A DNA stretch of 57,702 nt from an uncultured archaeon (GTDB taxonomy: Archaea; Iainarchaeota; Iainarchaeia; Iainarchaeales; VGJJ01). How positions within the stretch are numbered: the first letter of the stretch is position 1; the number at the start of each line of letters is the position of its first letter. The notes below the pieces were generated by a model. It was given only the letters and a program-made list of their open reading frames with translations, did no database searches and was not told the origin of the DNA. The stretch lies in NCBI GenBank assembly GCA_964372665.1, contig CAYJRE010000003.1, forward strand, positions 1 to 57,702, in the 5' to 3' direction. The translations under genes were made by a program, and so were the position numbers. Positions 27,295 through 41,912 of this stretch are shown one piece after another.

Positions 27295-29469
27295 CTACCT
27301 CAAATCCACCCGGCGGAGAAGAAGGGCATTCGTGACCACGGACACGGAAGAGAGGGCCATGGCCCCGCCCGCAACGATGGGGGAGAGCAACCAACCCGTA
27401 AAGGGATACAATACGCCGGCTGCGATAGGAATCCCAATCACATTATAGATGAGCGCCCAAAACATGCCCTGCTTGATTTTGTTCATCGTCGCCTTCCCGA
27501 GCTTCAGGGCGGCCACCACATCGTACGGATCGGAACGCATCAACACGACGTGGCCGGCTTCCATCGCAATGTCGGTTCCCTTTCCCATGGCGAAACCCAC
27601 ATTTGATTGGGCCAAAGCCGGTGCATCATTCACGCCGTCTCCAACGAAACCGACTTTCTTTCCTTGTACTTGCAACTTTTTCACATATTGAGCCTTTTTT
27701 TCCGGCAAAACTTCCGCGAAAACATGCGAAATGCCCAACTGTTTGGCAATCGCCTTCGCCGTGCGTTCATTATCCCCCGTAATCATCCACACATCAATGC
27801 GCTGATTTTGCAAATCATGCACGGCTCGTGTGGCAGTGGACTTTGGTTGGTCCGCGATCGCAATCATCGCAATAGGTTTTGATTGACGCGCCACAAATAC
27901 AACGGTTTTTCCTTCATGCTCGAGCTTTTCCATTTCGGATTCGAACGTTCGCACGTTCACTTTATTTGCGCGCATAAACGAGTGATTTCCAATCACATAC
28001 GACTTCCCTTTTACAAAACCATTCACCCCTTTCCCGAATTCCGCACGAAAACGAGAAACCGAAGCAGGTGGAATGCGCTTACCGGAAATATGCTGGACGA
28101 TGGCCTGGGCTAATGGGTGTTCGGACTTCTCCTCCAATCCCCGAATGGTGGACAACACTTCCCGCTCGTTTTCGGTTTGGGAAACAACCACATCGGTTAC
28201 TGCCGGTTTTCCTTGGGTAAGCGTCCCGGTCTTGTCAAAAATGATGGCATTCATTCCGTGCATTGTTTCCAACGCCTCCGCGCCCTTGATGAGAATCCCG
28301 TTCTCGGCCCCCTTCCCGGTGCCCACCATAATCGCGGTGGGTGTTGCCAGTCCCAGTGCACATGGACACGCAATCACAAGAACCGAAACCGCGGTCACCA
28401 ACGCAAAACCCGGCGCGGATTGAGCCAAAAACAACCACCCCGCAAACGTGAGAACCGCCAAAACGATAACCGCCGGGACAAATACCGCGGAAATCTGGTC
28501 CGCGAAACGCTCAATGTCGGCCTTGCTTCCCTGCGCCTCTTCCACCAGCTTCACGATGCGCGCGAGCACCGTATCCTTCCCCACTTTGGAAGCGCGAAAC
28601 GTAATGTTCCCATTCAAATTAATCGTGCCTCCAACGACCGTATCGTTTTTTCCCCGATCAACGGGCAAACTCTCCCCCGTAATCATGCTCTCATCCAACG
28701 AGGTCTCCCCCGAAACAATCACACCATCCACGGGAACACGCTCACCCGGTTTCACAACTAGCAAATCTCCCACTTGAACTTGTTCAATGGGAACATCCAC
28801 TACTTTTTTCCCTTTGAGCAAATGGGCTTTCTTGGGAGACAAATCCATGAGCTTGCGAATTGCCTCGCTCGTCTTGCCTTTGGCAATCGCCTCGAGGTAT
28901 TTACCCAAAACGACCAGCGTGATGATAATGGCCCCCACTTCGAAATATTGCTCCAACACTAAACCTACCACATGAGCCACGCTGTAGACGTAGGCTGCAC
29001 TCGTACCCAATGCAATGAGCGTGTCCATCGTGAACGTTCCCGAAAACAAGGCTGTCCACGCATCCCGGTAAAACCGCCAACCCACATAAAACTGCACGGG
29101 AGTTGCCAACAAGAAAAGAAGAAAAATGCGGTATGGAAACTCCATGAAAACCATTCCCAGCAACAGCGCAGGAAAACTCAACACGGCTCCAACAATGAGC
29201 ATTTTTTTCAATTCAGCAATCTCACTGGCTCGAACCTCTTTTTCGTGTTCAAGGGAAACATCAAATGTGGCTCCGTACCCTCTTTTTTTGACCGCCTCAA
29301 TTAACGCGTTCTCATTCGCCTGTTTTTCATCAAACTCCACATGCGCTTTCTGAACCGCATAATTCACATGCGCGGTTTTCACGCCCGAAACCTTCTCCAA
29401 CGACTTTTGGATTAACACGGCACAACTCGCGCAATGCATACCCTCAATCGCCAATTCCATTTTTCTCAT
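27295..29469 (-). CDS. copA: Copper-translocating P1B-type ATPase
   Basis: N-terminal HMA GMHCASC, TM CPC motif IACPCALG, DKTGTLT, TGDN, GDGVNDAP. Confidence 0.9.
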   Translation of the reverse strand: MRKMELAIEGMHCASCAVLIQKSLEKVSGVKTAHVNYAVQKAHVEFDEKQANENALIEAVKKRGYGATFDVSLEHEKEVRASEIAELKKMLIVGAVLSFPALLLGMVFMEFPYRIFLLFLLATPVQFYVGWRFYRDAWTALFSGTFTMDTLIALGTSAAYVYSVAHVVGLVLEQYFEVGAIIITLVVLGKYLEAIAKGKTSEAIRKLMDLSPKKAHLLKGKKVVDVPIEQVQVGDLLVVKPGERVPVDGVIVSGETSLDESMITGESLPVDRGKNDTVVGGTINLNGNITFRASKVGKDTVLARIVKLVEEAQGSKADIERFADQISAVFVPAVIVLAVLTFAGWLFLAQSAPGFALVTAVSVLVIACPCALGLATPTAIMVGTGKGAENGILIKGAEALETMHGMNAIIFDKTGTLTQGKPAVTDVVVSQTENEREVLSTIRGLEEKSEHPLAQAIVQHISGKRIPPASVSRFRAEFGKGVNGFVKGKSYVIGNHSFMRANKVNVRTFESEMEKLEHEGKTVVFVARQSKPIAMIAIADQPKSTATRAVHDLQNQRIDVWMITGDNERTAKAIAKQLGISHVFAEVLPEKKAQYVKKLQVQGKKVGFVGDGVNDAPALAQSNVGFAMGKGTDIAMEAGHVVLMRSDPYDVVAALKLGKATMNKIKQGMFWALIYNVIGIPIAAGVLYPFTGWLLSPIVAGGAMALSSVSVVTNALLLRRVDLR

Positions 29470-29485
29470 ACAATAGCCCCAATTA

Positions 29486-29683
29486 TTACTCTAAGGCGTA
29501 TCCTTCTTTTTCCACGGCCTTTTTGACGGCTGGCAGTTCACCTTCATTTTTCATATCCACTACTATTTCCCCTTTCTGGTGGTTAGCCGAAACTACTTTT
29601 GTTCCCGATTCTTCAATGGCCTCCGTCAATACTATCTCACAGCTATTACAGTGCATTCCCTTGATTTTCAATTTTTTTTTCAT
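29486..29683 (-). CDS. copZ: Heavy-metal-associated domain copper chaperone
   Basis: 65 aa, KIKGMHCNSCE (MxCxxC). Lies 16 nt upstream of copA. Confidence 0.8.
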   Translation of the reverse strand: MKKKLKIKGMHCNSCEIVLTEAIEESGTKVVSANHQKGEIVVDMKNEGELPAVKKAVEKEGYALE

Positions 29684-29778: not shown

Positions 29779-30525
29779 TCACTTTGTTTCTGATTGTATG
29801 GCAGCGATTCTGTATTTGGCTCTGATTAGATATTTTCTATCGCCTTGTTTTTGAATGGCGAAATTGTCTGCCTTTTCTTCCTCCCTGATAAACACGTTGG
29901 TTATTCCAGAAAAAGCAAAAAACGGAGAAATGGTTTTGAGTGAAACCCCCAGTAACTTCAATTTTGGCGTGTTATTTTGAATGTGATAAAGCTCATGCAA
30001 TATTACCGCTTCCAGTTCCTTAGGGGCCAATAGTTCAAGCAATCCAATGGAAAAAAACAGTTTTGGTTTCCAAGAAGTGGTGGAAAATGCGATTGGCTTT
30101 GATTCGTCGATGATAAAAATTTTTGGTGGGCCGATATTTTCTTTTTGGGACAGGTTGTTTATTTTTTCATATAATGGCCCGGAATTGACTTCTTTTGTTT
30201 TGAATAATCGTTGATATAGCATGGGAACAACAAAGTATCCAAGCAGTATTGTTCCCAAGATCGAAGCGGGAATCGCCAATAGAATTGTTGGAGATGCACA
30301 CATTTGGATGAAATGGCAGCCCCGTGAAAAAACGGCGGATACCAATGGAAAAGTTAGAGCGAATAGGTGGGTGTACATCCAAAATATTTTATGTTTGGCT
30401 TCTTTTTTTTTGACTCTCCAAAAGGAAATAATGGCTATTGCTGCAGAGAATAATATGGCGTAGACGCCTTGATTGGCTAATAAGGTGGGAATCCAAACAG
30501 CAGTAATGCATTCAAGTTGAAACAT
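29779..30525 (-). CDS. M56-family (BlaR1-like) membrane metalloprotease, short form
   Basis: Four or more TM segments, an HExxH motif (LHELYHIQNN), and a position immediately downstream of a BlaI-like repressor. Confidence 0.65.
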   Translation of the reverse strand: MFQLECITAVWIPTLLANQGVYAILFSAAIAIISFWRVKKKEAKHKIFWMYTHLFALTFPLVSAVFSRGCHFIQMCASPTILLAIPASILGTILLGYFVVPMLYQRLFKTKEVNSGPLYEKINNLSQKENIGPPKIFIIDESKPIAFSTTSWKPKLFFSIGLLELLAPKELEAVILHELYHIQNNTPKLKLLGVSLKTISPFFAFSGITNVFIREEEKADNFAIQKQGDRKYLIRAKYRIAAIQSETK

Positions 30526-30528
30526 GCG

Positions 30529-30894
30529 TTATTTTTCACCGAACCGTTCATTGAAATAAGCGACTGCCGTTGAACCAAATTTTTCAATCAGCTTGTTAAC
30601 GCTGTTCTCCACTAACTTTTTTTCAAAGTCCTTGCTGCTCTTTTTGAGCGAGTATATGTATCGGTAACCGCCACGACAACTTTCAATTTCTCGGTCAGTG
30701 GCTTTGGCTTTGTATAATCGGTCTAATAACACTGTGACGCTGGTGGGTGCCACGCGGTACCCTTTTTTGATTAAAATTTGGTGGATTTCCTTGGATCTTG
30801 CTTTCGTGTTATGGGATAGGGTTCCCAGAATTTCTCGCTCTAGCTCGTTTAGAGACTTTTGGAGTTCTGGCCGAATGAATTGCATTGTTTTCAT
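30529..30894 (-). CDS. BlaI/MecI/CopY-family transcriptional repressor
   Basis: LNELEREILGTLSHN...KEIHQIL...APTSVTVLLDRLYKAKATDREIE matches the penicillinase-repressor wHTH pattern. There is no C-terminal CxCxxxxCxC copper site. Confidence 0.7.
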   Translation of the reverse strand: MKTMQFIRPELQKSLNELEREILGTLSHNTKARSKEIHQILIKKGYRVAPTSVTVLLDRLYKAKATDREIESCRGGYRYIYSLKKSSKDFEKKLVENSVNKLIEKFGSTAVAYFNERFGEK

Positions 30895-31055: not shown

Positions 31056-32522
31056 ATGGACACGATTCGATATTGTGCGGTTTGCGGTAAAGAGACCAAA
31101 GACGATAAACTTTCGAGGTTTGGTGAATTCTTTTGCTCTCCAAAACACTTGGACGAGTTTGTAGAAGAAACCAAGAAGCAAAAATTGGGCCAATCCACCG
31201 ACCTAAATAGGGGCACAGAACCAGTTACCATTACAGCCAAAGACCCGGTTACCGTTGCAGGAAACGATTTTTTTTCTCTTTTGAATAATACGCGCGATAT
31301 TTTATTTAAAGAAAAATATGCCAAGATTTTTGCAGTTTCTTTTAGCGTATTGTTGATTGTGTTCGCTTTTTTGGGTGGCCTTTTTTACATCCCAGTCGTT
31401 GACATTGGATTTTTCCGAATGTCTGAGGTTACGCTGTTCGACTACGCGTTTATATTACTGTCGAGCGTGTTGAGCGCCATCCTATTGGCTTTGATATGGT
31501 TTAATCGCGACCAACAATTGCATCTCGGTAGAGCGGGAACTGCAAGCGCTGGACTGGCTGGTTTTATGGCGGCGGTTTGCCCAACGTGCCAAGCAGTTAA
31601 TTTTGTTGCTTTGGGTGCTACGGCCATTAGCATACCATTGGGGCCAATTATCCCATACTTGGGGGCGTTAAAGTTTTTCAGCTTGGGGTTGCTCGGGTTG
31701 GCAACGTATACTACCTCCAAAAGCATTTATTCCAAAACGTGTCCAACCACCGTCATTCCGTTAAACCAACCTCATAGGAAAGAATCAAAAGAAGAAAATT
31801 CGCCAATAGTGCAATTCTTTTTTGAAAACAACATGGGATTTTCATTGCTAACCGGTTTGATAGTAATCCTGCTCTTTAACCAAATCATGTTGATGTCTGT
31901 ATTTGCCAGCATGGTTCCAACCCCCGGAACAGCGGCTTCCATGATTGGAAAGGTGAGCATTCAAGGAAGCGAGTTAGCCTACGGTTCAAAAATTACACTT
32001 AAGCCGATGCCATTAGCTACGGAGGAACAACCAGTCATTGCAGGGTATAAAACAAAAGTAAAAGCACTTCCAACCATTAGCGAGATGACCATGGCGCCCA
32101 GTACCGGAGACACAGCACAAGACTTGGTCAACAACGTGGTGCCGCACGGAACGCCATCCTATGGACAAGAAGCGGGAGTGAGTTTTGATGACCCCATCCA
32201 GGCACAAAATGTTTGGGGAACTTATGAAGGAAGTATCCAGCTAAGCGCAGATATGCAAACGCGTTGGGGCAAGATTGTTAACGCTTTTACTTGTGATTAT
32301 TGTTGCGGCAGCCCACAAAATCCAACGATTATAACGCGATGCGGTTGCGCTCATGCCAAAGCGGCGAGAGGGATGGCGAAATGGTTCATCCAAAAATATG
32401 GATCCCAGTACTCCGATGAAGAGATTTATGGAGAAATGGCTCGATGGTATGCATTGTGGTATCCTGGACCAACGGTAAAGAGAATTGCAGAAGAACTGCA
32501 AGCAAACGGTGGAAGATTCTAA
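31056..32522 (+). CDS. Three-module fusion: TRASH-like zinc ribbon, polytopic membrane domain with intramembrane CPTC, and an extracytoplasmic CxYCCG...CGCAH domain (function unknown)
   Basis: N-terminus YCAVCGKET...FGEFFCSPKH. TM region with AAVCPTCQAV. C-terminus CDYCCGSPQNPTIITRCGCAHAKAARGMAKWFIQKYGSQYSDEEI. ATG 31056 follows GGTGTGGAG. Confidence 0.8.
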   Translation: MDTIRYCAVCGKETKDDKLSRFGEFFCSPKHLDEFVEETKKQKLGQSTDLNRGTEPVTITAKDPVTVAGNDFFSLLNNTRDILFKEKYAKIFAVSFSVLLIVFAFLGGLFYIPVVDIGFFRMSEVTLFDYAFILLSSVLSAILLALIWFNRDQQLHLGRAGTASAGLAGFMAAVCPTCQAVNFVALGATAISIPLGPIIPYLGALKFFSLGLLGLATYTTSKSIYSKTCPTTVIPLNQPHRKESKEENSPIVQFFFENNMGFSLLTGLIVILLFNQIMLMSVFASMVPTPGTAASMIGKVSIQGSELAYGSKITLKPMPLATEEQPVIAGYKTKVKALPTISEMTMAPSTGDTAQDLVNNVVPHGTPSYGQEAGVSFDDPIQAQNVWGTYEGSIQLSADMQTRWGKIVNAFTCDYCCGSPQNPTIITRCGCAHAKAARGMAKWFIQKYGSQYSDEEIYGEMARWYALWYPGPTVKRIAEELQANGGRF

Positions 32523-32550
32523 TCAAACAACAAAAAAGGAGGTGAAAACA

Positions 32551-32787
32551 ATGGAAAAAACAATTTTACTGGGATTGCTGCTTGGAGCCATGGTTTTGGT
32601 TTCAATGTTTCAAGCCATCCAAATCATGGGACTGAGTGAAATACTCTCGGGGTCTAATGGAATTGCAGGAACCAGCAGTAGCAGCGGTACCACCCCCACA
32701 CCAATAGCCGGCAGCCCAAGCACAACAAGCGCAAGCAGCAGCGGTTCGAGCTTGGACAACTTGCCTGCGATGGTTGGAGGGTGCTAA
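32551..32787 (+). CDS. Small TM-anchored Ser/Thr/Gly-rich protein ending in -MVGGC
   Basis: Strong RBS AAGGAGGTGA 6 nt before ATG 32551. MEKTILLGLLLGAMVLVSMFQAIQIMGL anchor, low-complexity linker, C-terminus LPAMVGGC-stop. Confidence 0.7.
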   Translation: MEKTILLGLLLGAMVLVSMFQAIQIMGLSEILSGSNGIAGTSSSSGTTPTPIAGSPSTTSASSSGSSLDNLPAMVGGC

Positions 32788-32901
32788 AAAAATCAACAAT
32801 AGTGGGGAGCAGTATATCGGACAATACCCAACCCGCTCCATTTGTTTCATGGTACCGGGCACAGCATACACTATACCATTTGGTGAAAAAATGGAAACGT
32901 A

Positions 32902-34101
32902 ATGAAAATAGAAACTATGGAGTGGAAAGAGATGTTTAACAAGGACAAGAATATCCTGTTTGTATCGCTCACGGTAGCGTTGGCTATATTGTTAGTGTTT
33001 AATGTAGTGCAAATTAGTGGCTTTTCCAAACTATTGGAGCAAAAGGCAGTTGAAAGGAAAGAACTCGCAAGACCGGCTCAGTTGGAAGTCATTACCTTAT
33101 TGGCAACCGGTTGTACTCAATGCTATTCAATGAAAAAAGAACTCGAGCAAATCACTAAACAAAATGTAAAAATTCAAGATCAAAAAACGATTGATTTTCA
33201 ATCCATAGAAGGAAAATCGCTAGTGGAAAAATACGGAATAAAGAAATTGCCCACCTTTATCATTCGAGGAGAAACAGTAAAAAATAATCAATTGGAAAAT
33301 TTTTGGAAAAAAACAGGTGGTGAAGTGACAGACGAAAACGAAGTAATACTACAATCTACGGCTGCCCCATACTTTGACATCGAGCTCAACAAAACAATAG
33401 GAGTGGTAAATATGATTCAGTTGAGCGCACGCGATTGCAATCAGTGTACTAGCATATCAAAAGTAATTGATGCACTAAAACAAAATGGCGTTGTTTTTGG
33501 TTCCGATGAAACGATTGATTATAGTGAACCCCGTTCGGTTGAAATTATCCAAAAGCATGGTGTTCAGCAAGTGCCAGCATTGCTTTTCTCAAAAGAAATT
33601 GAAGCATATCCGTCCATATTCCAGCAATTAAAGCAGTTAACTACTCAGGAAAAGGAAGGATACTACGCCCTTCATTCTACTAGCCCACCGTACTTGAACG
33701 CGGCTACTGGAAAAACAATAGGGTTAGTTGAATTAATTTTATTGAAGGATAGCAATTGCACAGAATGTTATGATGTGGCTCTCAATAAGACTATTCTTAC
33801 TCGATTCGGTGTCGTAGTATCTGATGAAATAGTATTGGAAGCCAGCTCTCCCGAAGGCAAAGTGTTAATCAATCAGTATCAAATTGAAAAGATTCCCATT
33901 ATTTTGATGTCACCTGACGCGAATGTTTACCCGCTGCTAAATAACGCTTGGCCTTCCGTCGGAAGTGTTGAAACCAACGGCTGGTTTATTATGCGCAGCC
34001 CCGAAGTTTTGGGAACGTATAGAGTCCTTTCGACGGGTCAAATCGTTAATCCTACCATTCCGCCAAATTCAACCGTCGGGGGAGGGGAATCTGGTTCATG
34101 A
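32902..34101 (+). CDS. Membrane-anchored protein with three thioredoxin-fold CxxC modules
   Basis: The TM anchor ends in FNVVQISGF. Three repeats each have a CxxC (CTQC, CNQC, CTEC), and each is followed ~45 aa later by a cis-Pro-like KLPTFII / QVPALLF / KIPIILM. Confidence 0.8.
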   Translation: MKIETMEWKEMFNKDKNILFVSLTVALAILLVFNVVQISGFSKLLEQKAVERKELARPAQLEVITLLATGCTQCYSMKKELEQITKQNVKIQDQKTIDFQSIEGKSLVEKYGIKKLPTFIIRGETVKNNQLENFWKKTGGEVTDENEVILQSTAAPYFDIELNKTIGVVNMIQLSARDCNQCTSISKVIDALKQNGVVFGSDETIDYSEPRSVEIIQKHGVQQVPALLFSKEIEAYPSIFQQLKQLTTQEKEGYYALHSTSPPYLNAATGKTIGLVELILLKDSNCTECYDVALNKTILTRFGVVVSDEIVLEASSPEGKVLINQYQIEKIPIILMSPDANVYPLLNNAWPSVGSVETNGWFIMRSPEVLGTYRVLSTGQIVNPTIPPNSTVGGGESGS

Positions 34102-34856
34102 TTTCAAAAAGCGCTTTGTTCTTTTCACTGGCATTAATGGTGGGAACTGTTTTCTTGTTTATGCTAACGGCCACCCATAATCAGAGAATCGCTTCAGGTG
34201 CAGCGGTTGCCACTAATACAACGGATTCGCTTGCGCAATCAAGTAGTAGCCGGATGGGGCTAACTTCTTTTGACAAAAAATTAGCCATTCAATTAATGGA
34301 CAAAGACGGGGACGGAAAGTGTGATTCTTGCGGAATGGGTGTTGAATTGTGCATGGATTCTGGCCAATTACAGTGCAACATGGGCCCCGATTCTACTATC
34401 GGGGTTTTGGGTTCCCAACACGTTCACTCGGATTGGAAAATTTATTTGAAAGGGAAAGCATTAGGTTCAGCGTTTTTTGAACCGCTAGCAATGAACATGT
34501 CTAATCCCAACAAGAGCACGACAAGCAGTTTTATTCATGTAGACCGGGGAGCACCGGCCCCAGAAAAAACAGGAGACGTGTTGCACATGCATGCAAGCGG
34601 TGTTCCATTGTGGATTTTTTTTGAAAGTGTGGGAATGAAATTGAGCAAAGAGTGCCTTGAACTACGTGAGGGAGAGAAGTATTGCAATGATAGCAATAAT
34701 ACATTGAAATTTTTTGTGAACGGAAAACCAAGCAGCGCTTTGGAGGAGTACGTGTTCCAAGATAATGACAAAATCCTTATCTCGTATGGCAATGAGACGG
34801 ATGTAGAAATTCAAAACCAGTTAAATTCGATTACTGGCTTCTCTAAAAATCATTGA
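34098..34856 (+). CDS. TM-anchored Cys/His-rich extracytoplasmic protein (paralog of 36311..36943)
   Basis: The ATGA overlap gives translational coupling. CDSCGMGVELCMDSGQLQC, then QHVHSD...VLHMHASG...FFVNGKPS...DNDKILISYG, alignable with the 36311 product. Confidence 0.75.
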   Translation: MISKSALFFSLALMVGTVFLFMLTATHNQRIASGAAVATNTTDSLAQSSSSRMGLTSFDKKLAIQLMDKDGDGKCDSCGMGVELCMDSGQLQCNMGPDSTIGVLGSQHVHSDWKIYLKGKALGSAFFEPLAMNMSNPNKSTTSSFIHVDRGAPAPEKTGDVLHMHASGVPLWIFFESVGMKLSKECLELREGEKYCNDSNNTLKFFVNGKPSSALEEYVFQDNDKILISYGNETDVEIQNQLNSITGFSKNH

Positions 34857-34941
34857 AGCAGGAATAATCCGCATGAATGCTAAAAATATGTTATTTACAT
34901 TAACCATTAAGGGTTTGTTTTGAACGACGGGGTGATCTTTT

Positions 34942-35385
34942 ATGAATGAAGACACGAATACAAGAGGAAAAACAGCCAGCGCTGCTGGAACCATTTCGAG
35001 CGGGGCAAGCCTTTTGAGTGGATACCAGGTATGCCATAACGTGTGCATGGGACTCATCGGGTTATTGTCCATCGTGGGAATAACGCTTGTTGGAATGCCC
35101 CTCGCTTTCTTATTACCATACTCGATTCCATTTTGGATAATAGGCGCGCTATTGTTATTGGTAACGGCCGCATGGTACGTTCAAAAACCGCACTGTGTTC
35201 CAAAACACTTAGTGTTGTTCAATGCAGGAATACTCATTGCAGCGATTCCGTTCAAAGAATTACAAAAACTTCAACTCGTTTTTTGGATTACTGGAGGCAT
35301 GATAATTGCTTTCGCAATATATGGCTACTGGACGAAAAGACAACGCTTTAAAAAAGTAAATTCTGAAATTGTTGGCAGTAAATGA
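34942..35385 (+). CDS. Four-TM membrane protein with CHNVC in TM1
   Basis: AAGTISSGASLLSGYQVCHNVCMGLIGLL. RBS GGGGTGA. Confidence 0.7.
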   Translation: MNEDTNTRGKTASAAGTISSGASLLSGYQVCHNVCMGLIGLLSIVGITLVGMPLAFLLPYSIPFWIIGALLLLVTAAWYVQKPHCVPKHLVLFNAGILIAAIPFKELQKLQLVFWITGGMIIAFAIYGYWTKRQRFKKVNSEIVGSK

Positions 35386-35468
35386 AAGCTTCCAATTCGA
35401 ATGTTTCCCCACCAGAAAGCGCTACTACCTGAGACATTTCGGCAGTTCTAAGACCTTTGATATCCCTA

Positions 35469-35573
35469 TCAATGGAACGGGGGCTTTCCTGTGTCTATAC
35501 GTTTTGCTGCGACACAACCGATTGCGAAAATTATCCCGATGAGTAACAGAATCAGCATCACACTTTTCTTCAT
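35469..35573 (-). CDS. 34-aa lipoprotein-like micro-ORF coupled to the upstream membrane-protein gene
   Basis: MKKSVMLILLLIGIIFAIGCVAAKRIDTGKPPFH. Its ATG overlaps the TGA of gene 35570..36085 (ATGA). Lipobox-like AIGC. It is below the ORF-track size cutoff. Confidence 0.3.
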   Translation of the reverse strand: MKKSVMLILLLIGIIFAIGCVAAKRIDTGKPPFH

Positions 35574-36085
35574 TTTATTTTACCTCGTGAAGATAGAAAT
35601 TTGGATTGCTCATACACAGCATACGACAAGAGAATTACGCTCATTACACCAAGCACTGGCTGCAAAGGCATAAAGTACGCTACCACGCCTGTCACGCCCA
35701 AAAGAAGTATTAGCACTTTATTGCATATCGCACACCCAAAGGAAAATAAACCGCCTACCGCCCCACCCGTTGCTACATAGTTGCAAATTGTTTGCGTCTT
35801 TCTAGTATAATACCACAACCCCACGTAAGTTCCTGAGAGTATCGAAGTCAGAACGAGGAATACATAATCATAATTGTATACCGGTGTCATTCTGACGAAA
35901 ATATCATTTGGCAGGAGCACGGTAATAATACCGAATGCTGAAAAGATTGCCAAGGCAGTCGCACTGCCCACGATTATTGAACGAGTGTTTAGTTTTTCCC
36001 GTTTATGATTTCCCCACATAGTTCCCCGTGATTTTTTATTCCAAGACTCGAAATACTTCCTTGTAACTTCTTTTGGTAAAGGCAT
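35570..36085 (-). CDS. Polytopic membrane protein with intramembrane CAIC (paralog of the membrane module of 31056..32522)
   Basis: FVRMTPVYNYDYVFLVLTSILSG...FSFGCAICNKVLILLLG...PLQPVLG aligns with FRMSEVTLFDYAFILLSSVLSA...AAVCPTCQAVNFVALG...PLGPIIP. Confidence 0.75.
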   Translation of the reverse strand: MPLPKEVTRKYFESWNKKSRGTMWGNHKREKLNTRSIIVGSATALAIFSAFGIITVLLPNDIFVRMTPVYNYDYVFLVLTSILSGTYVGLWYYTRKTQTICNYVATGGAVGGLFSFGCAICNKVLILLLGVTGVVAYFMPLQPVLGVMSVILLSYAVYEQSKFLSSRGKIK

Positions 36086-36138
36086 ATCGTATGTTTATTT
36101 TATTGATTTTTGGATGCGAGGATTACCCCGACCCAGTA

Positions 36139-36265
36139 GCGCGACACTCCCACGCCTAAAGGCGTGGGCTTCTGTTGAAATGGCGTTGGAGAAGCGCGAT
36201 TATAAACGGCTACGCCTTTACTCTTGCCTGAAAGGCAGGGGCTTCGGGCGAGGGAGTGTCAGTGA
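36139..36265. repeat. Long copy of the MITE-like or structured repeat (ends gacactccc/gggagtgtc, two CC-T(G)AAA-GG hairpins)
   Basis: gcgcgacactccc + hairpin cccacgcc-taaa-ggcgtggg + ~52-nt spacer + hairpin ctcttgcc-tgaaa-ggcagggg + cttcgggcgagggagtgtcagtga. The ends and the second hairpin match 10023..10076. Confidence 0.5.
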
Positions 36266-36310
36266 AAAAACAACACGGACTTGCTTATTCACTTAAAGGA
36301 AACAATATTC

Positions 36311-36943
36311 TCACGCGGAATCCCCCCCAGGCTCCATTCGAATCGTATATTTGTCTCCATCGCGGATAACCCGATTATCAAATTCGGTGTTTTCCTGGCC
36401 ATTCACTAAAAAAGTCATGACCGCCGGTGCGCCATTGGGGCAATTCTCCCCCACTTTCTTTCCATTAAACTCATTTTGAGTAAATGTTATTCCAATTCGG
36501 CGCATGAACTTTCCTACGGTTATTTGGTCGGGGGCGGTTGCATTCCCTTCGAGATGAATGCGTTGATCCCCATGCGTGTGCAATAAGTGGTCAACAATTG
36601 GCGCATTCGGCATGATGAAGGGTTCCCCACAAACACTACCATCCACATCCGCATGCCAGTGAACATTTCCAGTTGGAAACGACAATCCAACGGTATTGTA
36701 AGGAGTAGTGGGTGAATCGTTTTTGGGATTGAATACCCCGACGGCGAATGCGGAGGCCAATATCCCCAAAACGAGAACAATAAGGATTGGAATTTTCATT
36801 TTCTTAAAAAAGGAAAATCTTTCTGTTTCAACGGGTTTGGTTTCCGAGTGCTTGGCCTTCCGATGCATTAATAGTGCGTCCGCGTTCGAGAATGTTCTTT
36901 GGCAATGGTCGCACCGACTCTCTCCTTCGCTCATTTCACTCAT
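36311..36943 (-). CDS. C2H2 zinc finger, TM anchor and His-rich extracytoplasmic domain protein (paralog of 34098..34856)
   Basis: CDHCQRTFSNADALLMHRKAKH (C-x2-C-x12-H-x4-H), a TM segment, then VHWHADVDG...LLHTHGDQRIHLEG...FLVNGQEN...DGDKYTIRM. Confidence 0.75.
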   Translation of the reverse strand: MSEMSEGESRCDHCQRTFSNADALLMHRKAKHSETKPVETERFSFFKKMKIPILIVLVLGILASAFAVGVFNPKNDSPTTPYNTVGLSFPTGNVHWHADVDGSVCGEPFIMPNAPIVDHLLHTHGDQRIHLEGNATAPDQITVGKFMRRIGITFTQNEFNGKKVGENCPNGAPAVMTFLVNGQENTEFDNRVIRDGDKYTIRMEPGGDSA

Positions 36944-37156
36944 GCTGAAAGGCCACCAAATAGTTCAATGCAAAAACAAGCAAGACGATGCTATAAGCCG
37001 CTATGTTATATTCTAGCTGGTTATTAACCTTTTCCCAAAAGTACACGCCAAAAGTCCGATCTTCTCGTTTCCATCGGCGACCTGCTCAGTTCTTCTTTAA
37101 TACTATCCCATCAAGAGGGCTCTATTGAAAGTCTTTGTTTTTAAACCCCGGCAGGT

Positions 37157-37438
37157 TTGAGTCCTGCCGGGTTGGGAGAAACCATTCGAGGTGGTTCCCC
37201 CGTGAATGAAGCTAAGATTATTCGTAAAATTAAGCGTTTGCTTCGGCGAGCAAACGCTCCGCGTTATCTGCATCATTTTGGTCCCAAAAAGTACAAGTTT
37301 TGGCAACACGTTTTAGCGTTGTTCGTGAAACAAGAATGTAAACTCTCGTTCCGAAGAGTCGTTTCGCTCCTGCGTGGATTTGGATTTAACGTTCCAAGTT
37401 ATTCCGCGCTTGCAAAAATGACCTCCTCCGTGGCCTAA
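37157..37438 (+). pseudogene. N-terminal fragment of an IS4/IS5-like (DDE) transposase
   Basis: KKYKFWQHVLALFVKQECKLSFRRVVSLL...NVPSYSALAKM resembles the N-terminal HTH region of IS5-type transposases (FTxHQLLALLLLK...YR..VELL...VPHFSTL). The ORF stops after 93 aa and no DDE part follows. Confidence 0.45.
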
Positions 37439-37569
37439 AGGCCACGGTATTCAATTGGGCATGAACGACACTTGCTCGCGTGCTCGCTCGCCAAACAATG
37501 GGCGACGAATGTCGCCCTAAAGGGCGAGGTATCAGACCTTTTTGATCGAACTTTTTTCTAAAAAGTTCG
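37428..37569 (+). repeat. Cluster of GC-rich hairpins, two with CC-TAAA-GG apex
   Basis: ccgtggcc-taaa-ggccacgg (37428-37447). gggcgac-gaat-gtcgccc (37500-37517) overlaps tcgccc-taaa-gggcga (37512-37527). cgaactttt-N5-aaaagttcg (37547-37569). Confidence 0.45.
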
Positions 37570-37681
37570 AATGAATCTGGTGGTGCTCAATGCGGAGTTG
37601 CGACCCGGAATCCCTACGCTCGCTTTTCAATCCGAAATGGCGATGCCGTCGAATGGGAATCCCGAACGACAGAAATAGGAA

Positions 37682-38572
37682 TCAAACCGAGGAATCCATT
37701 TCCCACCTAAATATGCGATCCACGCCCCCCACGTTTTGGAGTACCAATGTGACTATGGCCATTTTCGACGGAATCGAATCGAACCGGAGTATGCCACTCC
37801 GGTGATGGCCGCCCAGTGCGCTGCCATCCCACGATACCGGAAAATATTTTTTACCCCGCTCATCCATGACATACGCTATTTTTTGGACGGAAAAATCCAA
37901 TTCGGTCTGATGCGTGTCAAACGCAATCTTGAACGCGATATGCGAATTAGAAAGAATGGGGGTCGCTTTCACCTCGACCCCGTTCTGAGAGCTCGTTTGA
38001 GTGGAGAGCAAAACGGCATCCGGCGAACCTACTGCCAAGGTTTGAGGAAGAAACCACGTGAAGGCGGCCAAGGCCGTTATACCAATCGCGCCCAAAACTG
38101 CCACCGTGTTCCGGATTTCCGCCCACGGCCATCCTTCCGCGAACGGAAAAGGAAAAACGCGGTGCCGTTGTAACAGGGAAAGCATGAGGGTTATCCCCAC
38201 CACACTTGAAACGATTCCTAGAACCATGAAGAAGGACTGGTACTCACTGAAAAACAAAAAAACGCCCGACAGCCCCAGAAAGGGGAGAATGTCCGTGACG
38301 TGGTGCAAACAACACGCAATCATGGTTCCTGCTGAAGTCCCTCCAGTGGCGGCCATCTGAGCGGAAGAGACGCGGTTCGCAAGTTCGGTGCGTCCATAAA
38401 AAAACAACCCCATTTGGGTGGCAAAACCAGCGGCCAACAGCAAGATGAGGAAACCGTATTCGCGAATCTGTTCCGCGACATGCGAGGGGCCGTTGAAAAC
38501 GAACGTGATGCCCCCATAAAGGAGCAACAATAATAATCCAGAAATAATCCCATAATAGGTTTCTTTGCGCAT
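37682..38572 (-). CDS. Polytopic membrane protein with vicinal-Cys ACCLHH motif plus a C-terminal beta-rich domain (GGHHRSG)
   Basis: ATGGTSAGTMIACCLHHVTDILPFLGLSG within a TM segment. The C-terminal ~110 aa are soluble (AFDTHQTELDF...WDGSALGGHHRSGILRF). ATG 38572 follows GGAGTGA. Confidence 0.75.
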   Translation of the reverse strand: MRKETYYGIISGLLLLLLYGGITFVFNGPSHVAEQIREYGFLILLLAAGFATQMGLFFYGRTELANRVSSAQMAATGGTSAGTMIACCLHHVTDILPFLGLSGVFLFFSEYQSFFMVLGIVSSVVGITLMLSLLQRHRVFPFPFAEGWPWAEIRNTVAVLGAIGITALAAFTWFLPQTLAVGSPDAVLLSTQTSSQNGVEVKATPILSNSHIAFKIAFDTHQTELDFSVQKIAYVMDERGKKYFPVSWDGSALGGHHRSGILRFDSIPSKMAIVTLVLQNVGGVDRIFRWEMDSSV

Positions 38573-38582
38573 ATGGTTTTTT

Positions 38583-39137
38583 TCACTCCTTACAGCAATC
38601 CACGAGCTTCTTGATGGTTTCCACAATTCCAACACTTGGATTTGAGCCCCGAAACAACCCTGGATTATTCTTTTTCACTTTTTCTGAAACACTGCCCTTT
38701 TCCTGCAACGGCAAATCAAGGGCTAGACCCATGAATAGGGAATACACCTCGAATCCACGAGAAAAATAGTTGGCCGCCTCACTCTCGTTTCCTGAATCCA
38801 ACTCTTTCGTGCCGACTTCCAACAATCGCATGGAAGCGGCCAGCAGGTGCTTGGAAATACACCACTCTTCCGCGGAAGGATTCCGTATGAGCTTTTTCAT
38901 GAACTCCTTCCGTATTTCTCGGATGGTGGAAAGCATGGTCAGGTATTTCTCATCGAATGTTTTGGCGAACGAAAACGCTAAATGCTCCTCCAGTGAAATA
39001 AGATTCATCAACCCGATGCTCAAGTCGGCATCCTTCGACAAATCCGCTTGCGAGAAAGAAAACTTTTTGACATCGTTAATCCAATCATCCGAAACGGGGG
39101 CGTTTTTTGCCCATTTCTTTTCGTTTTGATTTGTCAT
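38583..39137 (-). CDS. Cytoplasmic helical hypothetical protein ending in -VDCCKE
   Basis: 184 aa with no TM segment and a vicinal Cys pair four residues from the C-terminus. Its start abuts the stop of the upstream gene. Confidence 0.7.
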   Translation of the reverse strand: MTNQNEKKWAKNAPVSDDWINDVKKFSFSQADLSKDADLSIGLMNLISLEEHLAFSFAKTFDEKYLTMLSTIREIRKEFMKKLIRNPSAEEWCISKHLLAASMRLLEVGTKELDSGNESEAANYFSRGFEVYSLFMGLALDLPLQEKGSVSEKVKKNNPGLFRGSNPSVGIVETIKKLVDCCKE

Positions 39138-39668
39138 TCAAAGGCCCCCCGCCATAAACAACAGGCTCGTGATGACCAATAGACCCAAAGTGAGCCAAAT
39201 GCCCTGGAACGGAACCAAAACTCGGCCGTGTTTTCGCTTCATCCATTCGTGCATTTGTAATGCGAAAAGGGATACCAATGCGCCCACCAAGCCTCCTGCC
39301 AAAAAGAAGGAAGGGAAGTATGCCTGGTTCAACAGGCCTCCACTCTGCCCCAGCCAAAAGATGGGCAAATAAAACATATCACGGCTCAACGCCTGCAATG
39401 GAATGATCGTGAGCAACCATGAACCGCCAATCAGCAATGGCGTTTGCAATGGAACTTTTTTCCCCAGCTTGCGGGAAAACCATATCCCTGTGCTCACCGC
39501 AAACGCGCCCACGAACAATCCGACGATGCTATCGCTCAACCCGAATGCTCGTGCGCCGAGAATTCCAACCCCGATAGCTGCTGTACAGAGGGGACAATGG
39601 GCGTGCACGACAGCAGCACTACCAAAAATCCCACCTAACACCGCTAGCCAACGACCCATTTTCTGCAT
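39138..39668 (-). CDS. Polytopic membrane protein with HAHCPLC motif in TM1
   Basis: MQKMGRWLAVLGGIFGSAAVVHAHCPLCTAAIGVGILG. RBS GGGTGGGGGA 7 nt upstream of ATG 39668. Confidence 0.7.
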   Translation of the reverse strand: MQKMGRWLAVLGGIFGSAAVVHAHCPLCTAAIGVGILGARAFGLSDSIVGLFVGAFAVSTGIWFSRKLGKKVPLQTPLLIGGSWLLTIIPLQALSRDMFYLPIFWLGQSGGLLNQAYFPSFFLAGGLVGALVSLFALQMHEWMKRKHGRVLVPFQGIWLTLGLLVITSLLFMAGGL

Positions 39669-39700
39669 GATTGTATCCCCCACCCATATCCTCATTTCCT

Positions 39701-40102
39701 TCAACACCCGCCTACCATCTGGGAACCGCCCGAAGAAGGGGCAGACTGGACTTGATCGGGGTGCATGCGCGCCATCATCTCCCCATAGGTTTCGCCCGCT
39801 TCACCGGCGCGGGCATCGGCACTGGCCCCCGCCAAGGAAACGCTTCCCGTAATGGGAGAATAGGCTTTCTGCAGGGCTCCAATCTGAAAGGCTTGCACGA
39901 CATTGAGCACCAATAACATGCCCACACCCGCGAGCAACGCATAATGTTTCCAATTCGCTTGAGAATCATGCGTATGCTCCGCAGGCGCATTCCGCGATTT
40001 TTCCTCACAGTGTTCGCACGGCATACTAGCAACACCCCCTGTCGTGATTGTGTCCTTGTTTCTTCGAATCTTTTTTATCAGATCGACTTTTTTCTGTTTC
40101 AT
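39701..40102 (-). CDS. Cys/His N-tail, TM anchor, tail ending in -MVGGC
   Basis: MPCEHCEEKSRNAPAEHTHD (cytoplasmic), anchor LLVLNVVQAFQIGAL, Ala/Gly/Ser-rich linker, C-terminus GGSQMVGGC-stop. Confidence 0.7.
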   Translation of the reverse strand: MKQKKVDLIKKIRRNKDTITTGGVASMPCEHCEEKSRNAPAEHTHDSQANWKHYALLAGVGMLLVLNVVQAFQIGALQKAYSPITGSVSLAGASADARAGEAGETYGEMMARMHPDQVQSAPSSGGSQMVGGC

Positions 40103-40203
40103 TCATCTGTCATCACTCTCCCATGAACGATTGGATCTTTCGTTTTCGAACCCTTCGTTCCATTCTACTTTGTGATTCACTGATTCGCTCTTCGTTGCTC
40201 ATG

Positions 40204-40914
40204 CTAACACCCTCCCACCATGTTTCCACCGCTCGAACTTTTTTGCTTCTCGATTCCGCGGTAAAGATTCGAGGCCAAATTGACATAATTGAACTCGATC
40301 CCGTTGTCCTCGAGCGCTTTCGCCTTCTGCGCTAGCGCGGAAGGAAAAAATAGGGTTTTCCATTTTCCGAGCTCATCCAAAATCTGCTCGTCTGAAAACT
40401 CGCTTCCGTGCTGGGTGATCAGATATTTTGCCAGGCCTCGCATGGCATAACTGTGCGCACACCCGCAAGCGGGGTTTCCTTCTGCATCTGTAATTGCAGG
40501 AGCCCCACAGCAATATTCGCAGCTTATGGAATTGGTTATTTTAATGTAGCGCGACAAGTCATCCCCTTCCAAGGTTATGCTCTGATCCAACGCTGCCAAT
40601 TTTCGAATCGTCGCATCGGCCAACTGGGCGTTTTTCGCCGAAACATCATCGAATGAAACACTCAATTCAGTTCCATACACGAGCGGAATGCCTTTGGGCA
40701 ATACCTTTTCCACATCTAATGCGACTTTGTTTTCCTCCGATTTGACAAGATTTCCAGTGTCCACCAGAGTATTTTGTGCTGCGCTCAATCCAGAATTACT
40801 TACAGAAATGGGCAGGGTGGTTAATCCAGTCATGTTCCACGCGTTGACGAGCGTCAGAATGAGAGCGACTCCCATCAGCCCAAGCGTGACACCGTAAATA
40901 GTTGCAATTTTCAT
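40204..40914 (-). CDS. TM-anchored CxYCCG...CGCAH domain protein ending in -MVGGC
   Basis: Strong RBS GAAGGAGGT. Anchor ALILTLVNAWNMTGL. CEYCCGAPAITDAEGNPACGCAHSYAMRGLAKYLITQHGSEFSDEQI. C-terminus SSSGGNMVGGC-stop. Confidence 0.8.
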   Translation of the reverse strand: MKIATIYGVTLGLMGVALILTLVNAWNMTGLTTLPISVSNSGLSAAQNTLVDTGNLVKSEENKVALDVEKVLPKGIPLVYGTELSVSFDDVSAKNAQLADATIRKLAALDQSITLEGDDLSRYIKITNSISCEYCCGAPAITDAEGNPACGCAHSYAMRGLAKYLITQHGSEFSDEQILDELGKWKTLFFPSALAQKAKALEDNGIEFNYVNLASNLYRGIEKQKSSSGGNMVGGC

Positions 40915-41028
40915 CCAAAAACCTCCTTCAGGAGAACATCTCCCCCGACGAGTGGTTACAGGACTGAAACAGCATTATACAATACCGGAGAAACTAGTTT
41001 CACCAGAGAAAAAGCGATTGGAGTGGTT

Positions 41029-41526
41029 TTAGACCAACACGACGAGGTTGGTCATGCCTCTCCGCTTGCGTTCGATGATTCTCTCATGCTCCATCTTGTC
41101 CAATATCCGAGAAATACGGACCTTGGAATAACCGGTTTCCCTCACCAAATCGGATTGGAACAAGGAGCCTTGACGCTGGACGAGCAACCCATAAATTTTT
41201 TGGGATTCTTCATCCAGCGAGGAAACATCAATGGGGACGATGGCCTTACGTGTTTCTCCCTTTGCTGGTATTTCAACGAAACCGAAATAGACGCCGATCA
41301 GAATGATAACAAAGGATAGCCCGAATCCTGCGACAAAGAACCACGAGGTGTCCGTCTTGTGGACGGGGCACGATAGCATGTCCCCCCCGCTCGCCTCGAT
41401 GTTCTCGCATAAAAAAGCGGCTTGGGCATCATACTGGATTTTCACGAAACCCAAAACCAACGATAACACTAATCCGATGATGATGAGGACGTAGCCGATT
41501 TGCTTTTTTTCCAAGGAAAGGGGCAT
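41029..41526 (-). CDS. Membrane-tethered winged-helix transcriptional regulator with Cys/His extracytoplasmic loop
   Basis: Two TM segments flank FLCENIEASGGDMLSCPVHKTD. The C-terminal LFQSDLVRETGYSKVRISRILDKMEHERIIERKRRG is MarR/ArsR-like wHTH. It is the first gene of the - strand operon. Confidence 0.7.
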   Translation of the reverse strand: MPLSLEKKQIGYVLIIIGLVLSLVLGFVKIQYDAQAAFLCENIEASGGDMLSCPVHKTDTSWFFVAGFGLSFVIILIGVYFGFVEIPAKGETRKAIVPIDVSSLDEESQKIYGLLVQRQGSLFQSDLVRETGYSKVRISRILDKMEHERIIERKRRGMTNLVVLV

Positions 41527-41651
41527 AGTATAGTATGTTCCAAGGCATTCAATAAAAAAGGCACCTTTTGAAGAGCCGCCCATATATCCTTTTCGATACT
41601 ATCCATTTTTAGACTCGAAAAACGATGTAACTGCCAGAGAGGTGATCCGCT

Positions 41652-41912
41652 TTGGATAAACTGAATATTCGCGCGGCCACGATTGCCGGGGGATTAGCGG
41701 CAGGATTATCCCATTTTCTGTTTGGAATAGTGGGAGTGTCAACCGGCAGCATGATGAGCATGTATCGCATGATGTTCGGTAGCATGATGGGAAGCGCGGT
41801 TCCTGACTTTGGTTTCACGTGGCTGGTGTACAGCACGGCCTTCTGGCTCATCATCGGAGGAGTCATCGGATATTTGGTGGCATTCTTTTACAATTGGGCA
41901 ATGAAAAAATAA
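41652..41912 (+). CDS. Small Met-rich membrane protein
   Basis: TTG start preceded by GAGAGGTGA. Two TM segments flank GSMMSMYRMMFGSMMGS. Divergent from the island regulator. Confidence 0.45.
   Translation: MDKLNIRAATIAGGLAAGLSHFLFGIVGVSTGSMMSMYRMMFGSMMGSAVPDFGFTWLVYSTAFWLIIGGVIGYLVAFFYNWAMKK

Follow-up and report, generated by a model that had tools for sequence, protein, structure and literature searches.

On a contig of an uncultured archaeon, a run of genes for Cys-, His- and Met-rich membrane and extracytoplasmic proteins lies beside the copper genes copZ and copA, and the question it raises is whether these genes form a system and, if so, what that system handles. The 57,702-nucleotide stretch that was analysed (contig CAYJRE010000003.1, forward strand) is referred to here as the window, and the genes are labelled A1 to A5, B0 to B2, C1, C2, C4 to C7 and D (Table 1). 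A first-pass annotation of the window, made from the letters alone, had proposed a coherent and largely unannotated multi-gene system, serving either a thiophilic metal or a thiol-disulfide relay. The coherence and the lack of annotation were both borne out, by synteny in other genomes and by empty library searches. As to function, we hold at somewhat better than even confidence that the genes encode a modular envelope system of DPANN archaea for a thiophilic metal, most likely Cu(I), that is tied genetically to the CopZ/CopA exporter.

Iterative profile searches for each family were run on 82 loci, each from a different species and many of them truncated. Among these 82 loci, C1 was found in 67, C5 in 57, C6 in 44, C7 in 39, B1 in 35, A5 in 23 and A3 in 13, and the copper and regulatory genes were represented by copA in 36, copZ in 28, BlaI in 12 and M48 in 11. 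Two arrangements recurred. In the type I arrangement, C1 and C2 are followed by one or two small proteins ending in Met-Val-Gly-Gly-Cys (MVGGC), then by C5, C6, C7 and/or A5, often with copA next. In the type II arrangement, a small MVGGC protein and A3 accompany a C2-like or A1-like gene, and a BlaI-M48 pair is transcribed divergently from them; in 11-12 loci this pair diverges from a C2-like gene. One arrangement of each type is present in the window, block 2 (the C genes) being of type I and block 1 (the A genes) of type II. The order C1-C2-small protein-C5-C6-C7 was found in Diapherotrites and Aenigmarchaeota: a Diapherotrites contig (L002) carries C1, C2, a small MVGGC protein, C5, C6, C7 (split in two), DUF5676 and copA followed by two cupredoxins, and an Aenigmarchaeota contig carries the same operon with a DUF411/CopG gene after the small protein. 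Across several DPANN phyla the gene order is conserved at about 35-55% protein identity. Because the same genes stand in the same order in dozens of other genomes, the clustering is far beyond chance, and chance clustering is excluded. The first-pass annotation had pictured an island that might be peculiar to this genome; the genes occur together in many genomes, and what the window contains is a modular cluster, conserved across DPANN archaea, in two copies.

The signature protein of this cluster is C2. Its family comprises at least 2073 relatives with an expectation value (E) of 1e-3 or below, all named 'hypothetical', from Woese-, Aenigm-, Diaphero-/Iain-, Micr-, Nano- and Pacearchaeota, and when one genome per GTDB species was scanned for the pattern, 400 genomes proved to encode a C2 relative. 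Five Cys and one His of the core (C131-E-Y-C134-C135...C149-G-C151-A-H153) and the terminal VGGC are invariant. The AlphaFold2 model of C2, with a mean predicted local distance difference test score (pLDDT) of 86 and values above 95 for most of the ectodomain, shows an anchor helix joined by a disordered linker to an all-alpha domain that bears a Cys-rich knuckle; Foldseek comparison of this model with the PDB gave a best E of 1.1 and assigned no fold. At the profile level C2 is related (90%, E=1.6e-6) to an unnamed family with the pattern 'PCCNNP...CNHGMA', which is present in nine DPANN loci. An identity of C2 with PCYCGC (PF13798) was considered and rejected, as C2 has no Pfam match and hhalign against PCYCGC neighbours gave 3%.

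The terminal motif sets a small group of proteins apart. Exactly three of the 1175 window open reading frames (ORFs) of at least 30 codons end in -MVGGC, namely A2, C2 and C4, and across the related loci 167 of 7320 ORFs end in GGC, 156 of these 167 in MVGGC. Such proteins usually come two per locus, as C2 and an adjoining single-pass protein of 50-125 residues. The small partner bears a cytoplasmic N-terminal CC or CxxC with His in 20 of 89 cases and, on its extracellular part, an MMARMHPDQ-type motif in 11 of 89 and an EHHG-type motif in 25 of 89. Other small membrane proteins with Cys-bearing ends recur nearby (for example L017 12531-13201 and L084 5545-5799); the recurring types are one with CAIC and an -ECCKKW end (10 loci) and others with CC in a transmembrane helix and a -GGCH or -KPCH end (8 and 5 loci).

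The second shared part is the membrane domain of A1, B1 and C7. A profile built from the three copies in the window retrieved 840 cluster representatives, which form two branches, one with CxxC, about 150 residues long and with many bacterial-looking sequences, and the other, that of C7, with CC[A/L/V]HH. Pfam MerT (PF02411) was matched by 3 of 78 scanned family members (best E=3.8e-5), and A1, B1 and C7 themselves gave no match to it at E≤0.1. A search for MerT-matching members among 20 chosen representatives found none and was replaced by direct profile comparison with MerT, for which four annotated MerT genes from plasmids served as the comparison set. The CxxC-branch profile aligned with this authenticated MerT in hhalign at 93.7% (E=1.9e-7) over 74 columns of the Cys-bearing hairpin, placing the last two helices of the family and its Cys motif on the first and second transmembrane helices of MerT. 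The B1 family aligned with MerT at 72.8% and the two branches with each other at 93.5%, the CCxH branch reaching MerT only via the CxxC branch. The invariant CC of C7 lies in the first hairpin helix, and the CPTC of A1 and the CAIC of B1 align to it. Because the window proteins failed the Pfam MerT comparison and the link is only profile to profile, we call the domain MerT-like rather than MerT, and regard it as a distant relative.

The C7 family is invariant at an F, a Q, M84, C87, C88 and H90, and its AlphaFold2 model (pLDDT 86) has five transmembrane helices and a C-terminal beta-sandwich. In the Foldseek search of this model only the sandwich found matches, to DUF4426, H. pylori CrdA, 3FBQ and YjhA; the CrdA match was to both the apo and the Ag-bound structure, with E=6e-3 and a target TM-score of 0.47-0.56. 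Because the fold is generic, we count the predicted likeness to CrdA as weak support for a copper role. The top C7 matches, to COPI/adaptin, were disregarded as generic appendage sandwiches. Single members of the membrane-domain family are fused to a DUF255 thioredoxin-like domain or to a cation-diffusion-facilitator C-terminus. One full-length C7 relative (P0144/L090 11-1483) carries an N-terminal ICMT/PEMT-type methyltransferase (PEMT E=2.6e-9, ICMT E=1.2e-7), a fusion that is intriguing given two partner proteins with a free C-terminal cysteine.

In Anaerolineae, the CCxHH domain of C7 relatives is preceded by a fused HMA domain (E=1e-15). The counterpart locus there (L089, JBHHXL010000069.1, 1941-8996) encodes YHS and Rieske proteins, the HMA-CCxHH fusion, a free-standing lipoprotein version of the C7-type GGHHRSG beta-sandwich, a divergent M48/M56 and BlaI pair, a 444-residue protein with an MSDCC start and, over its membrane part, a weak sub-threshold SfLAP match, and a 348-residue 'PCCNNP...CNHGMA...GGGGCGV' protein. 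Because of this counterpart locus and of the relationship between the PCCNNP family and C2, the module reaches into Bacteria. The C2 profile reached the bacterial 348-residue protein by hmmsearch at an insignificant 2.5 bits, so that this link is one of family profile to family profile.

Three further families are held together by conserved ligand residues. C6 has at least 7979 relatives, all named hypothetical, with the invariant elements EEH, E-E-W-C-x-S-K-H, M-R-L-x-E-x-G-x-K and a terminal D-C-C-K-E, in which C93, H97, C181 and C182 are the invariant ligand residues. It is the only one of the 1175 window ORFs to end in -DCCKE; it has no Pfam or PDB match, and a Pfam scan of 34 single members returned noise. 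C5 has an invariant A-H-C-P-L-C after a signal-like segment of 18-32 residues, with Ala at position -1 before HCPLC in 54 of 55 sequences and V, A, S or T at position -3 in 53 of 55; this is the -3/-1 pattern of a canonical signal-peptidase site, and C5 is presumably cleaved to leave an N-terminal His beside two Cys at the membrane surface. In A5, which is found mostly after C6 or C7, C31, H32 and C35 are conserved in 22 of 22 sequences. Plasmid mer loci (L085 2066-2278, L087 2071-2289) contain genes for 'GDCCVxC domain-containing (seleno)protein' beside MerT-family genes, and the DCC core of these proteins resembles, by eye, the C6 terminus (-DCCKE) and the DCCK with which C4-type proteins begin.

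The genetic company of the cluster is that of copper. Of the 25 loci whose flanks extend for 8 kb or more in each direction, 16 have a full-length copA no more than 10 kb away, and in 18 loci copA is downstream and on the same strand; by our own estimate, a random 20-kb stretch would contain copA a few percent of the time if the genome measures some 1 Mb and has one or two copies of the gene. A DUF411/CopG-like family directly follows the small MVGGC gene in 32 of 82 loci, with E=2.9e-25 for the DUF411 match in L003. Unsupervised clustering of the neighbours added Met/His-rich secreted proteins (20 loci), DsbA-like proteins (16), ArsR (15), DUF302 (12), PadR with a Cys-rich tail (12), the membrane protein ending in -ECCKKW (10), PCYCGC (7) and CcdA (6). 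Mercury genes were scarce: a MerA-like gene, 31% identical, is present in 1 of 80 loci and none in the window, neither MerR nor MerB was seen in the neighbour clustering, and HMA matches in the window are limited to copZ and copA, with no merR/merP/merA operon. Together with the MerT homology, the HMA fusion and YHS neighbours and the CrdA-like sandwich, the linkage to copA and copZ and the CopG-like genes support the thiophilic metal that the first-pass annotation had offered as one of its two readings. Genes of the IscS and IscU type are further recurrent neighbours of the cluster in other loci.

In the window itself, the ORF taken as copA was read directly for the HMA CxxC, the membrane CPC, DKTGT and MxxSS, and all are present; its motifs are presumably those of a Cu(I)-specific pump. 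It is homologous to genes labelled HMA, E1-E2_ATPase and Hydrolase by Pfam that stand beside the cluster in other genomes. BlaI (Penicillinase_R, PF03965, E=2.8e-8) is the first gene of a BlaI-M48-copZ-copA transcription unit divergent from A1. The genes of the island described in the first-pass annotation all stood, and its bounds did not, the unit actually reaching BlaI, M48, copZ and copA (27295-30894). The protease has three or four transmembrane helices, matches Peptidase_M48 (PF01435, E=6e-7) above the cut-off and M56 (PF05569, E=1.4e-5) below it, and forms a BlaI/BlaR1-type pair with the repressor; at 248 residues it has no further domain, and a penicillin-binding sensor domain is absent. 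Directly downstream of copA lies a PadR-like regulator with a C-terminal CxxC-x-H tail (26840-27211, - strand) and beyond it SufB, SufD and SufS (SUFBD_core twice, Aminotran_5; 22873-27211, - strand), so that an Fe-S assembly operon adjoins the copper exporter.

Library searches left most of the island without a family. Pfam, NCBIfam and the PDB gave nothing for ten island proteins, A1, A2, A4, A5, B1, C2, C4, C5, C6 and C7, so that the modules remained unassigned in the profile searches that the first-pass annotation had proposed, and PDB sequence-profile searches of C2, C5, C6 and C7 gave no meaningful match, that of C5 being empty. Pfam and NCBIfam matches among the island proteins were limited to thioredoxin, winged-helix, BlaI, M48 and a sub-threshold C2H2; judged from these three libraries, the described families among the components are limited to thioredoxin, winged helix, BlaI, M48, CopZ and CopA parts. 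The first repeat of A3 matches Thioredoxin (PF00085, E=2.2e-8), and its repeats, with one CxxC apiece, match one another at E=1e-10 to 2e-13. The winged helix of C1 is DUF7343 (PF24034, E=1.4e-12), a label also borne by neighbours in L001-L004; it lies behind two transmembrane helices, between which the Cys/Cys/His loop is located. Two domain calls were partly upheld. The N-terminal ribbon of A1 had been termed 'TRASH-like'; the C..CG...FCS..H pattern is there by eye, and YHS/TRASH profiles gave no match, only weak zinc-ribbon hits (E=0.037 and 0.18) being seen. The C2H2 finger of B2 falls below the Pfam cut-off (E=5e-4), and its C..C...H....H pattern is kept in 14 of 16 relatives.

The paralogies among the modules were measured by pairwise blastp. 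Residues 358-488 of A1 are 39% identical to residues 68-208 of C2 (E=7e-27), and residues 78-227 of A1 are 30% identical to B1 (E=3e-13), making A1 a fusion of which similar cases occur elsewhere (P0297, P0279 and L076); its C2-type extracellular domain carries CDYCCG...CGCAH, and the MVGGC tail is absent. B1 matches the C7 N-terminus (E=1e-5), A4 matches B2 (E=2e-6) and A2 weakly matches C4 (E=8e-4). Comparison of C5, A5, C6, C1 and B2 with each other gave no significant relation, B1 and C7 being the only related pair.

Table 1. Genes of the cluster and of the adjoining copper unit in the window, in order of position.
Gene	Position	Strand	Description
copA	27295..29469	-	P1B-type Cu(I) ATPase; HMA motif GMHCASC, membrane CPC, YN and MALSS
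copZ	29486..29683	-	65-residue HMA metallochaperone, GMHCNSC
M48/M56	29779..30525	-	BlaR1-like membrane metalloprotease; HELYH; Cys/His in loops
BlaI	30529..30894	-	BlaI/CopY-family winged-helix repressor (Penicillinase_R)
A1	31056..32522	+	fusion: cytoplasmic Cys3His ribbon, four-helix MerT-like membrane domain (CPTC), extra transmembrane helix, C2-type ectodomain
A2	32551..32787	+	small, single-pass; Ser/Thr/Gly-rich linker; C-terminal -MVGGC
A3	32902..34101	+	membrane-anchored, extracellular; three thioredoxin-fold repeats (CTQC, CNQC, CTEC)
A4	34098..34856	+	membrane-anchored His/Cys-rich ectodomain; paralogue of B2 ectodomain
A5	34942..35385	+	four transmembrane helices; invariant CHxxC in helix 1
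B0	35469..35573	-	34-codon micro-ORF; AIGC lipobox-like site
B1	35570..36085	-	stand-alone four-helix MerT-like membrane domain with CAIC
B2	36311..36943	-	cytoplasmic C2H2-type finger, one transmembrane helix, His-rich ectodomain (HWH, HTH, H.E)
C7	37682..38572	-	four-helix MerT-like membrane domain, fifth transmembrane helix, extracellular beta-sandwich with GGHHRSG
C6	38583..39137	-	soluble, cytoplasmic, helical; C-terminal -DCCKE
C5	39138..39707	-	polytopic membrane protein; A-HCPLC after signal-peptide-like segment
C4	39701..40102	-	single-pass; cytoplasmic CxxC/His N-terminus, extracellular MMARMHPDQ, C-terminal -MVGGC
	40113..40202	-	29-codon micro-ORF; open reading frame only
C2	40204..40914	-	anchor helix, linker, all-alpha Cys-rich ectodomain (CEYCC...CGCAH), C-terminal -MVGGC; signature protein
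C1	41029..41583	-	membrane-tethered winged-helix regulator (DUF7343); extracellular C...CPxH loop
D	41652..41912	+	Met-rich mini protein with two transmembrane helices; resembles DUF5676

All ORFs of the first-pass annotation are present at, or within a few codons of, the coordinates that it gave, and its motifs, paralogies, coupled starts and Shine-Dalgarno-like sites were likewise found in the sequence. ATGA overlaps join A3 to A4 and B1 to B0 in start-codon contexts, the TGA of C5 is followed at once by the ATG of C6, the AAGGAG site of C7 falls within the CCKE codons of C6, and GGAGG-type sites precede copZ, A2, A4 and C2. The start of C7 is most likely 38572, giving 296 residues, and those of C5 and C1 are probably 39668 and 41526. 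The two micro-ORFs are open as described; the 82 loci contain no relative of either, and gene prediction on identical contigs passes over the 29-codon ORF. Protein D has a Pfam match to DUF5676 at E=0.068 and a blastp match (E=2.5e-5) to the DUF5676-labelled gene that sits between C7 and copA in L002. By hydropathy, the winged helix of C1, the N-termini of C4 and B2, the A1 ribbon and the whole of C6 are placed in the cytoplasm, and the C2 domains, the MVGGC tails, A3, A4, the B2 ectodomain and the C7 beta-domain outside.

The G+C fraction is 0.41-0.44 across BlaI-M48, A1-A5, B1 and B2 (29000-37000) and 0.47-0.51 in copA, block 2 and the rest of the window, and the type II block may have a different history, for example lateral acquisition. 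Between B2 and C7, 740 bp (36944-37681) hold no convincing gene, and a perfect 11-nt inverted repeat with a 3-nt loop lies at 37546-37570. A 93-residue ORF there (37157-37438, + strand) looked by eye like a transposase remnant; Pfam returned nothing and the claim was dropped. A 269-residue secreted or anchored Gly/Thr/Ala-rich protein with several Cys and no Pfam match (43487-44296, + strand) stands just past the aldehyde dehydrogenase that flanks the island. Elsewhere in the window, a RadA/Rad51 gene (7442-9934, + strand) is interrupted by an intein with a LAGLIDADG homing-endonuclease domain.

How might such a set of proteins work? On the reading that they handle a thiophilic metal, the single-pass proteins C2, C4 and A2 would present their Met/His motifs and a terminal Met-x-Gly-Gly-Cys arm outside the cell, where the metal would be bound by the C2 domain, the HCPLC of C5, the GGHH beta-sandwich of C7 and the His-rich A4 and B2 domains. 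It would then pass to the membrane sites, M..CCxHH in C7, CxxC in A1 and B1 and CHxxC in A5. In the cytoplasm, the -DCCKE end of C6 and the N-terminal CC or CxxC of C4-type proteins would exchange metal with CopZ and CopA; the HMA domain of the bacterial relatives occupies the same cytoplasmic position as these vicinal-Cys ends. Two sensors may govern the set, C1 through its outward Cys/Cys/His loop and the BlaI repressor with the M48 membrane protease, and A3, in other loci CopG-like, DsbA or CcdA proteins, may keep the ligand thiols reduced or alter the redox state of the metal. We infer the metal, the order of transfer and its direction; transfer could serve import, presentation to CopA or capture of exported Cu(I), and sequence alone does not decide between these.

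Comparison with known systems places the cluster between several of them. It shares with the Mer relay (MerP to MerT/MerF/MerC to NmerA/MerA) the passing of a soft metal from Cys pair to Cys pair, by way of an outside binder, a Cys pair in a membrane hairpin and a cytoplasmic Cys pair or HMA domain, and the vicinal-Cys C-terminal arm. It differs in that the membrane domain of the window has four to five transmembrane helices rather than three, with CxxC or M..CCxHH as motifs; MerA and MerR are absent, as is MerP as such, the context is copper, and C2, the MVGGC proteins and C5 on the outside, and C6 in the cytoplasm, are unrelated to any Mer protein. With the copper sets (CopZ/CopA with CopG/DUF411, CopC/PcoC, CusF, CrdA and CupA) it shares physical linkage to, and probably co-transcription with, copA and copZ, a CopG-like gene in the operon elsewhere, Met/His-rich outside motifs, a CrdA-like sandwich in C7 and CupA-like anchored binders. 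However, C2, C4, C5 and C6 match none of these families, the MVGGC arm and the -DCCKE protein have no counterpart there, and small transmembrane Cys/His domains are added. Like ScsABCD and CcdA/DsbD, the cluster combines Cys-pair membrane proteins with extracytoplasmic thioredoxin folds and a link to copper tolerance, but no similarity to DsbD_TM was found, a separate CcdA is present in 6 related loci, and the core motif contains His and Met. The regulatory pair resembles BlaI/BlaR1 (MecI/MecR1) and CopY in having a Penicillinase_R repressor beside an M48/M56 protease upstream of copZ and copA, and such a pair also accompanies the bacterial HMA-C7 gene. The lack of a penicillin-binding sensor domain sets the protease apart from BlaR1, and the repressor, read from sequence, lacks the C-terminal CxCx4CxC that forms the metal site of CopY. 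The Ctr1 permeases offer an analogy only: Cu(I) is captured outside by Met and His and handed on by a short Cys-containing C-terminal end (HCH in Ctr1), and there is no homology and the membrane architecture is different.

Several points weigh against a metal-handling role. None of the components is closely related to a characterised protein; the homology to MerT is distant, with no Pfam model reached by the proteins of the window, and the CrdA match is to a generic beta-sandwich. copA is missing from a third of the full-length loci, and the type I operon of the window has no CopG-like (DUF411) gene of its own. To our knowledge few cuproenzymes are known in DPANN archaea, and a copper importer beside a copper exporter would be partly futile. 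Finally, the CxxC motifs, the thioredoxin folds and the presence of DsbA and CcdA would be just as compatible with a redox role, and a transmembrane relay of reductant in the manner of Scs or CcdA/DsbD, transporting no metal, is the alternative that we take most seriously, although we judge it unlikely. The CC tails of C6 would reduce the CxxC and CC sites in the membrane (C7, B1, A1, C5, A5), and these would keep C2, the MVGGC tails, A3 and the DsbA-like proteins reduced or correctly oxidised, a role that would be greatest under copper-catalysed thiol oxidation; an Scs-like system would be linked to copper anyway. In its favour are motifs of the classic redox type (CPTC in A1, CAIC in B1, HCPLC in C5), the three thioredoxin repeats of A3, the DsbA-like genes of 16 related loci and the CcdA/DsbD_TM genes of 6, and the one membrane-domain relative that is fused to the DUF255 thioredoxin-like domain. 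The window has its own membrane-anchored DsbA-like oxidoreductase (CPFC; 48064-48900, - strand), which shares 42% identity with the DsbA-like genes found beside the cluster in those 16 loci, so that extracytoplasmic disulfide chemistry is present in this genome. But the most conserved motif is M..CCxHH, not CxxC: the core branch of C7 joins a vicinal CC and HH to an invariant Met, which would make poor disulfide chemistry and is typical of soft-metal ligands, and the tails bear a single Cys. The membrane domain is homologous to MerT and not to CcdA, DsbB or VKOR, and the bacterial relatives bring an HMA fusion and a YHS neighbour. C5, C7 and B1 have no Pfam match to DsbD/CcdA, DsbB or VKOR, and profile searches of C5 and C7 were empty against the PDB sequence set, which should include DsbB, VKOR and CcdA; a faint VKOR match (E=0.05) was seen on C1. 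The first-pass annotation had suggested a relay replacing DsbB, VKOR and CcdA, yet genuine CcdA (6 of 82 loci) and DsbA (16 of 82) accompany the system instead of being replaced by it.

The terminal cysteine could be read in another way. If the MVGGC end, together with a conserved N-terminal helix (N/QxxQ), were a sorting or modification signal, then C5, with its invariant His-Cys, or a partner would process, lipidate, methylate or cross-link that cysteine, and the cluster would be a maturation system for surface proteins that merely lies near copper genes. The same tail ends proteins that are otherwise unrelated, which usually number two per locus and always stand next to each other; C5 always comes after them, and one C7 relative is fused to the ICMT/PEMT-type membrane methyltransferase. 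We nevertheless think this improbable: all C-terminal sorting signals known to us have a hydrophobic or basic segment after the motif, and there is none here; the tail follows a long flexible linker, as do the swinging arms of MerA and thioredoxin reductase, to which it is analogous; the methyltransferase fusion was seen once only; and the Met/His motifs, the cytoplasmic CC ends and the MerT/HMA/CopG context would be left unexplained. Mercury is more improbable still as the substrate. MVGGC proteins acting as MerP analogues, MerT-like import of Hg(II) and a cytoplasmic detoxifier would agree with the MerT homology of the membrane domain and with vicinal Cys pairs on both membrane faces, but the rarity of MerA and the lack of MerR and MerB in the neighbourhoods speak against it, the constant partners are copA, copZ and CopG-like genes, and the Met/His-rich motifs point to Cu(I). 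Although the anatomy follows the Mer relay, the genetic company is copper, and we therefore favour copper over mercury. That unrelated Cys-rich hypothetical membrane proteins have simply piled up, by chance or within one lineage, is scarcely credible; most parts are unannotated and the two micro-ORFs unsupported, but the gene order conserved between phyla, the domain fusions of A1 and C7, which join the parts, and the translational coupling all contradict it.

Within the metal-handling reading that we prefer, a bolder version is possible, though we hold it only tentatively and think it rather doubtful: a copper/thiol trafficking machine specific to DPANN archaea, whose defining invention would be the terminal Met-Val-Gly-Gly-Cys swinging arm on surface-tethered proteins, with the C2 fold, the HCPLC of C5 and the -DCCKE acceptor of C6 completing a ligand-exchange path from outside to inside. 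In a more radical version still, the terminal Cys would be methyl-esterified or lipidated and would constitute a new C-terminal signal. DPANN archaea make up a large share of archaeal diversity, and most of their conserved genes have no function, whereas this module has families numbering thousands of members, an evident logic in its domains and metal ligands open to testing. A role for it would be a role for at least six unannotated families; it would bring the MerT superfamily into the copper biology of archaea and add a confidently modelled Cys-rich fold without PDB counterpart, along with a new conserved C-terminal motif. Its small parts suit heterologous and in vitro work and would give a handle on metal homeostasis in genetically intractable organisms. 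If the bolder version is true, the pathway would have no homologue so far characterised and might be central to the way in which these episymbionts tolerate or acquire metals where they meet their hosts.

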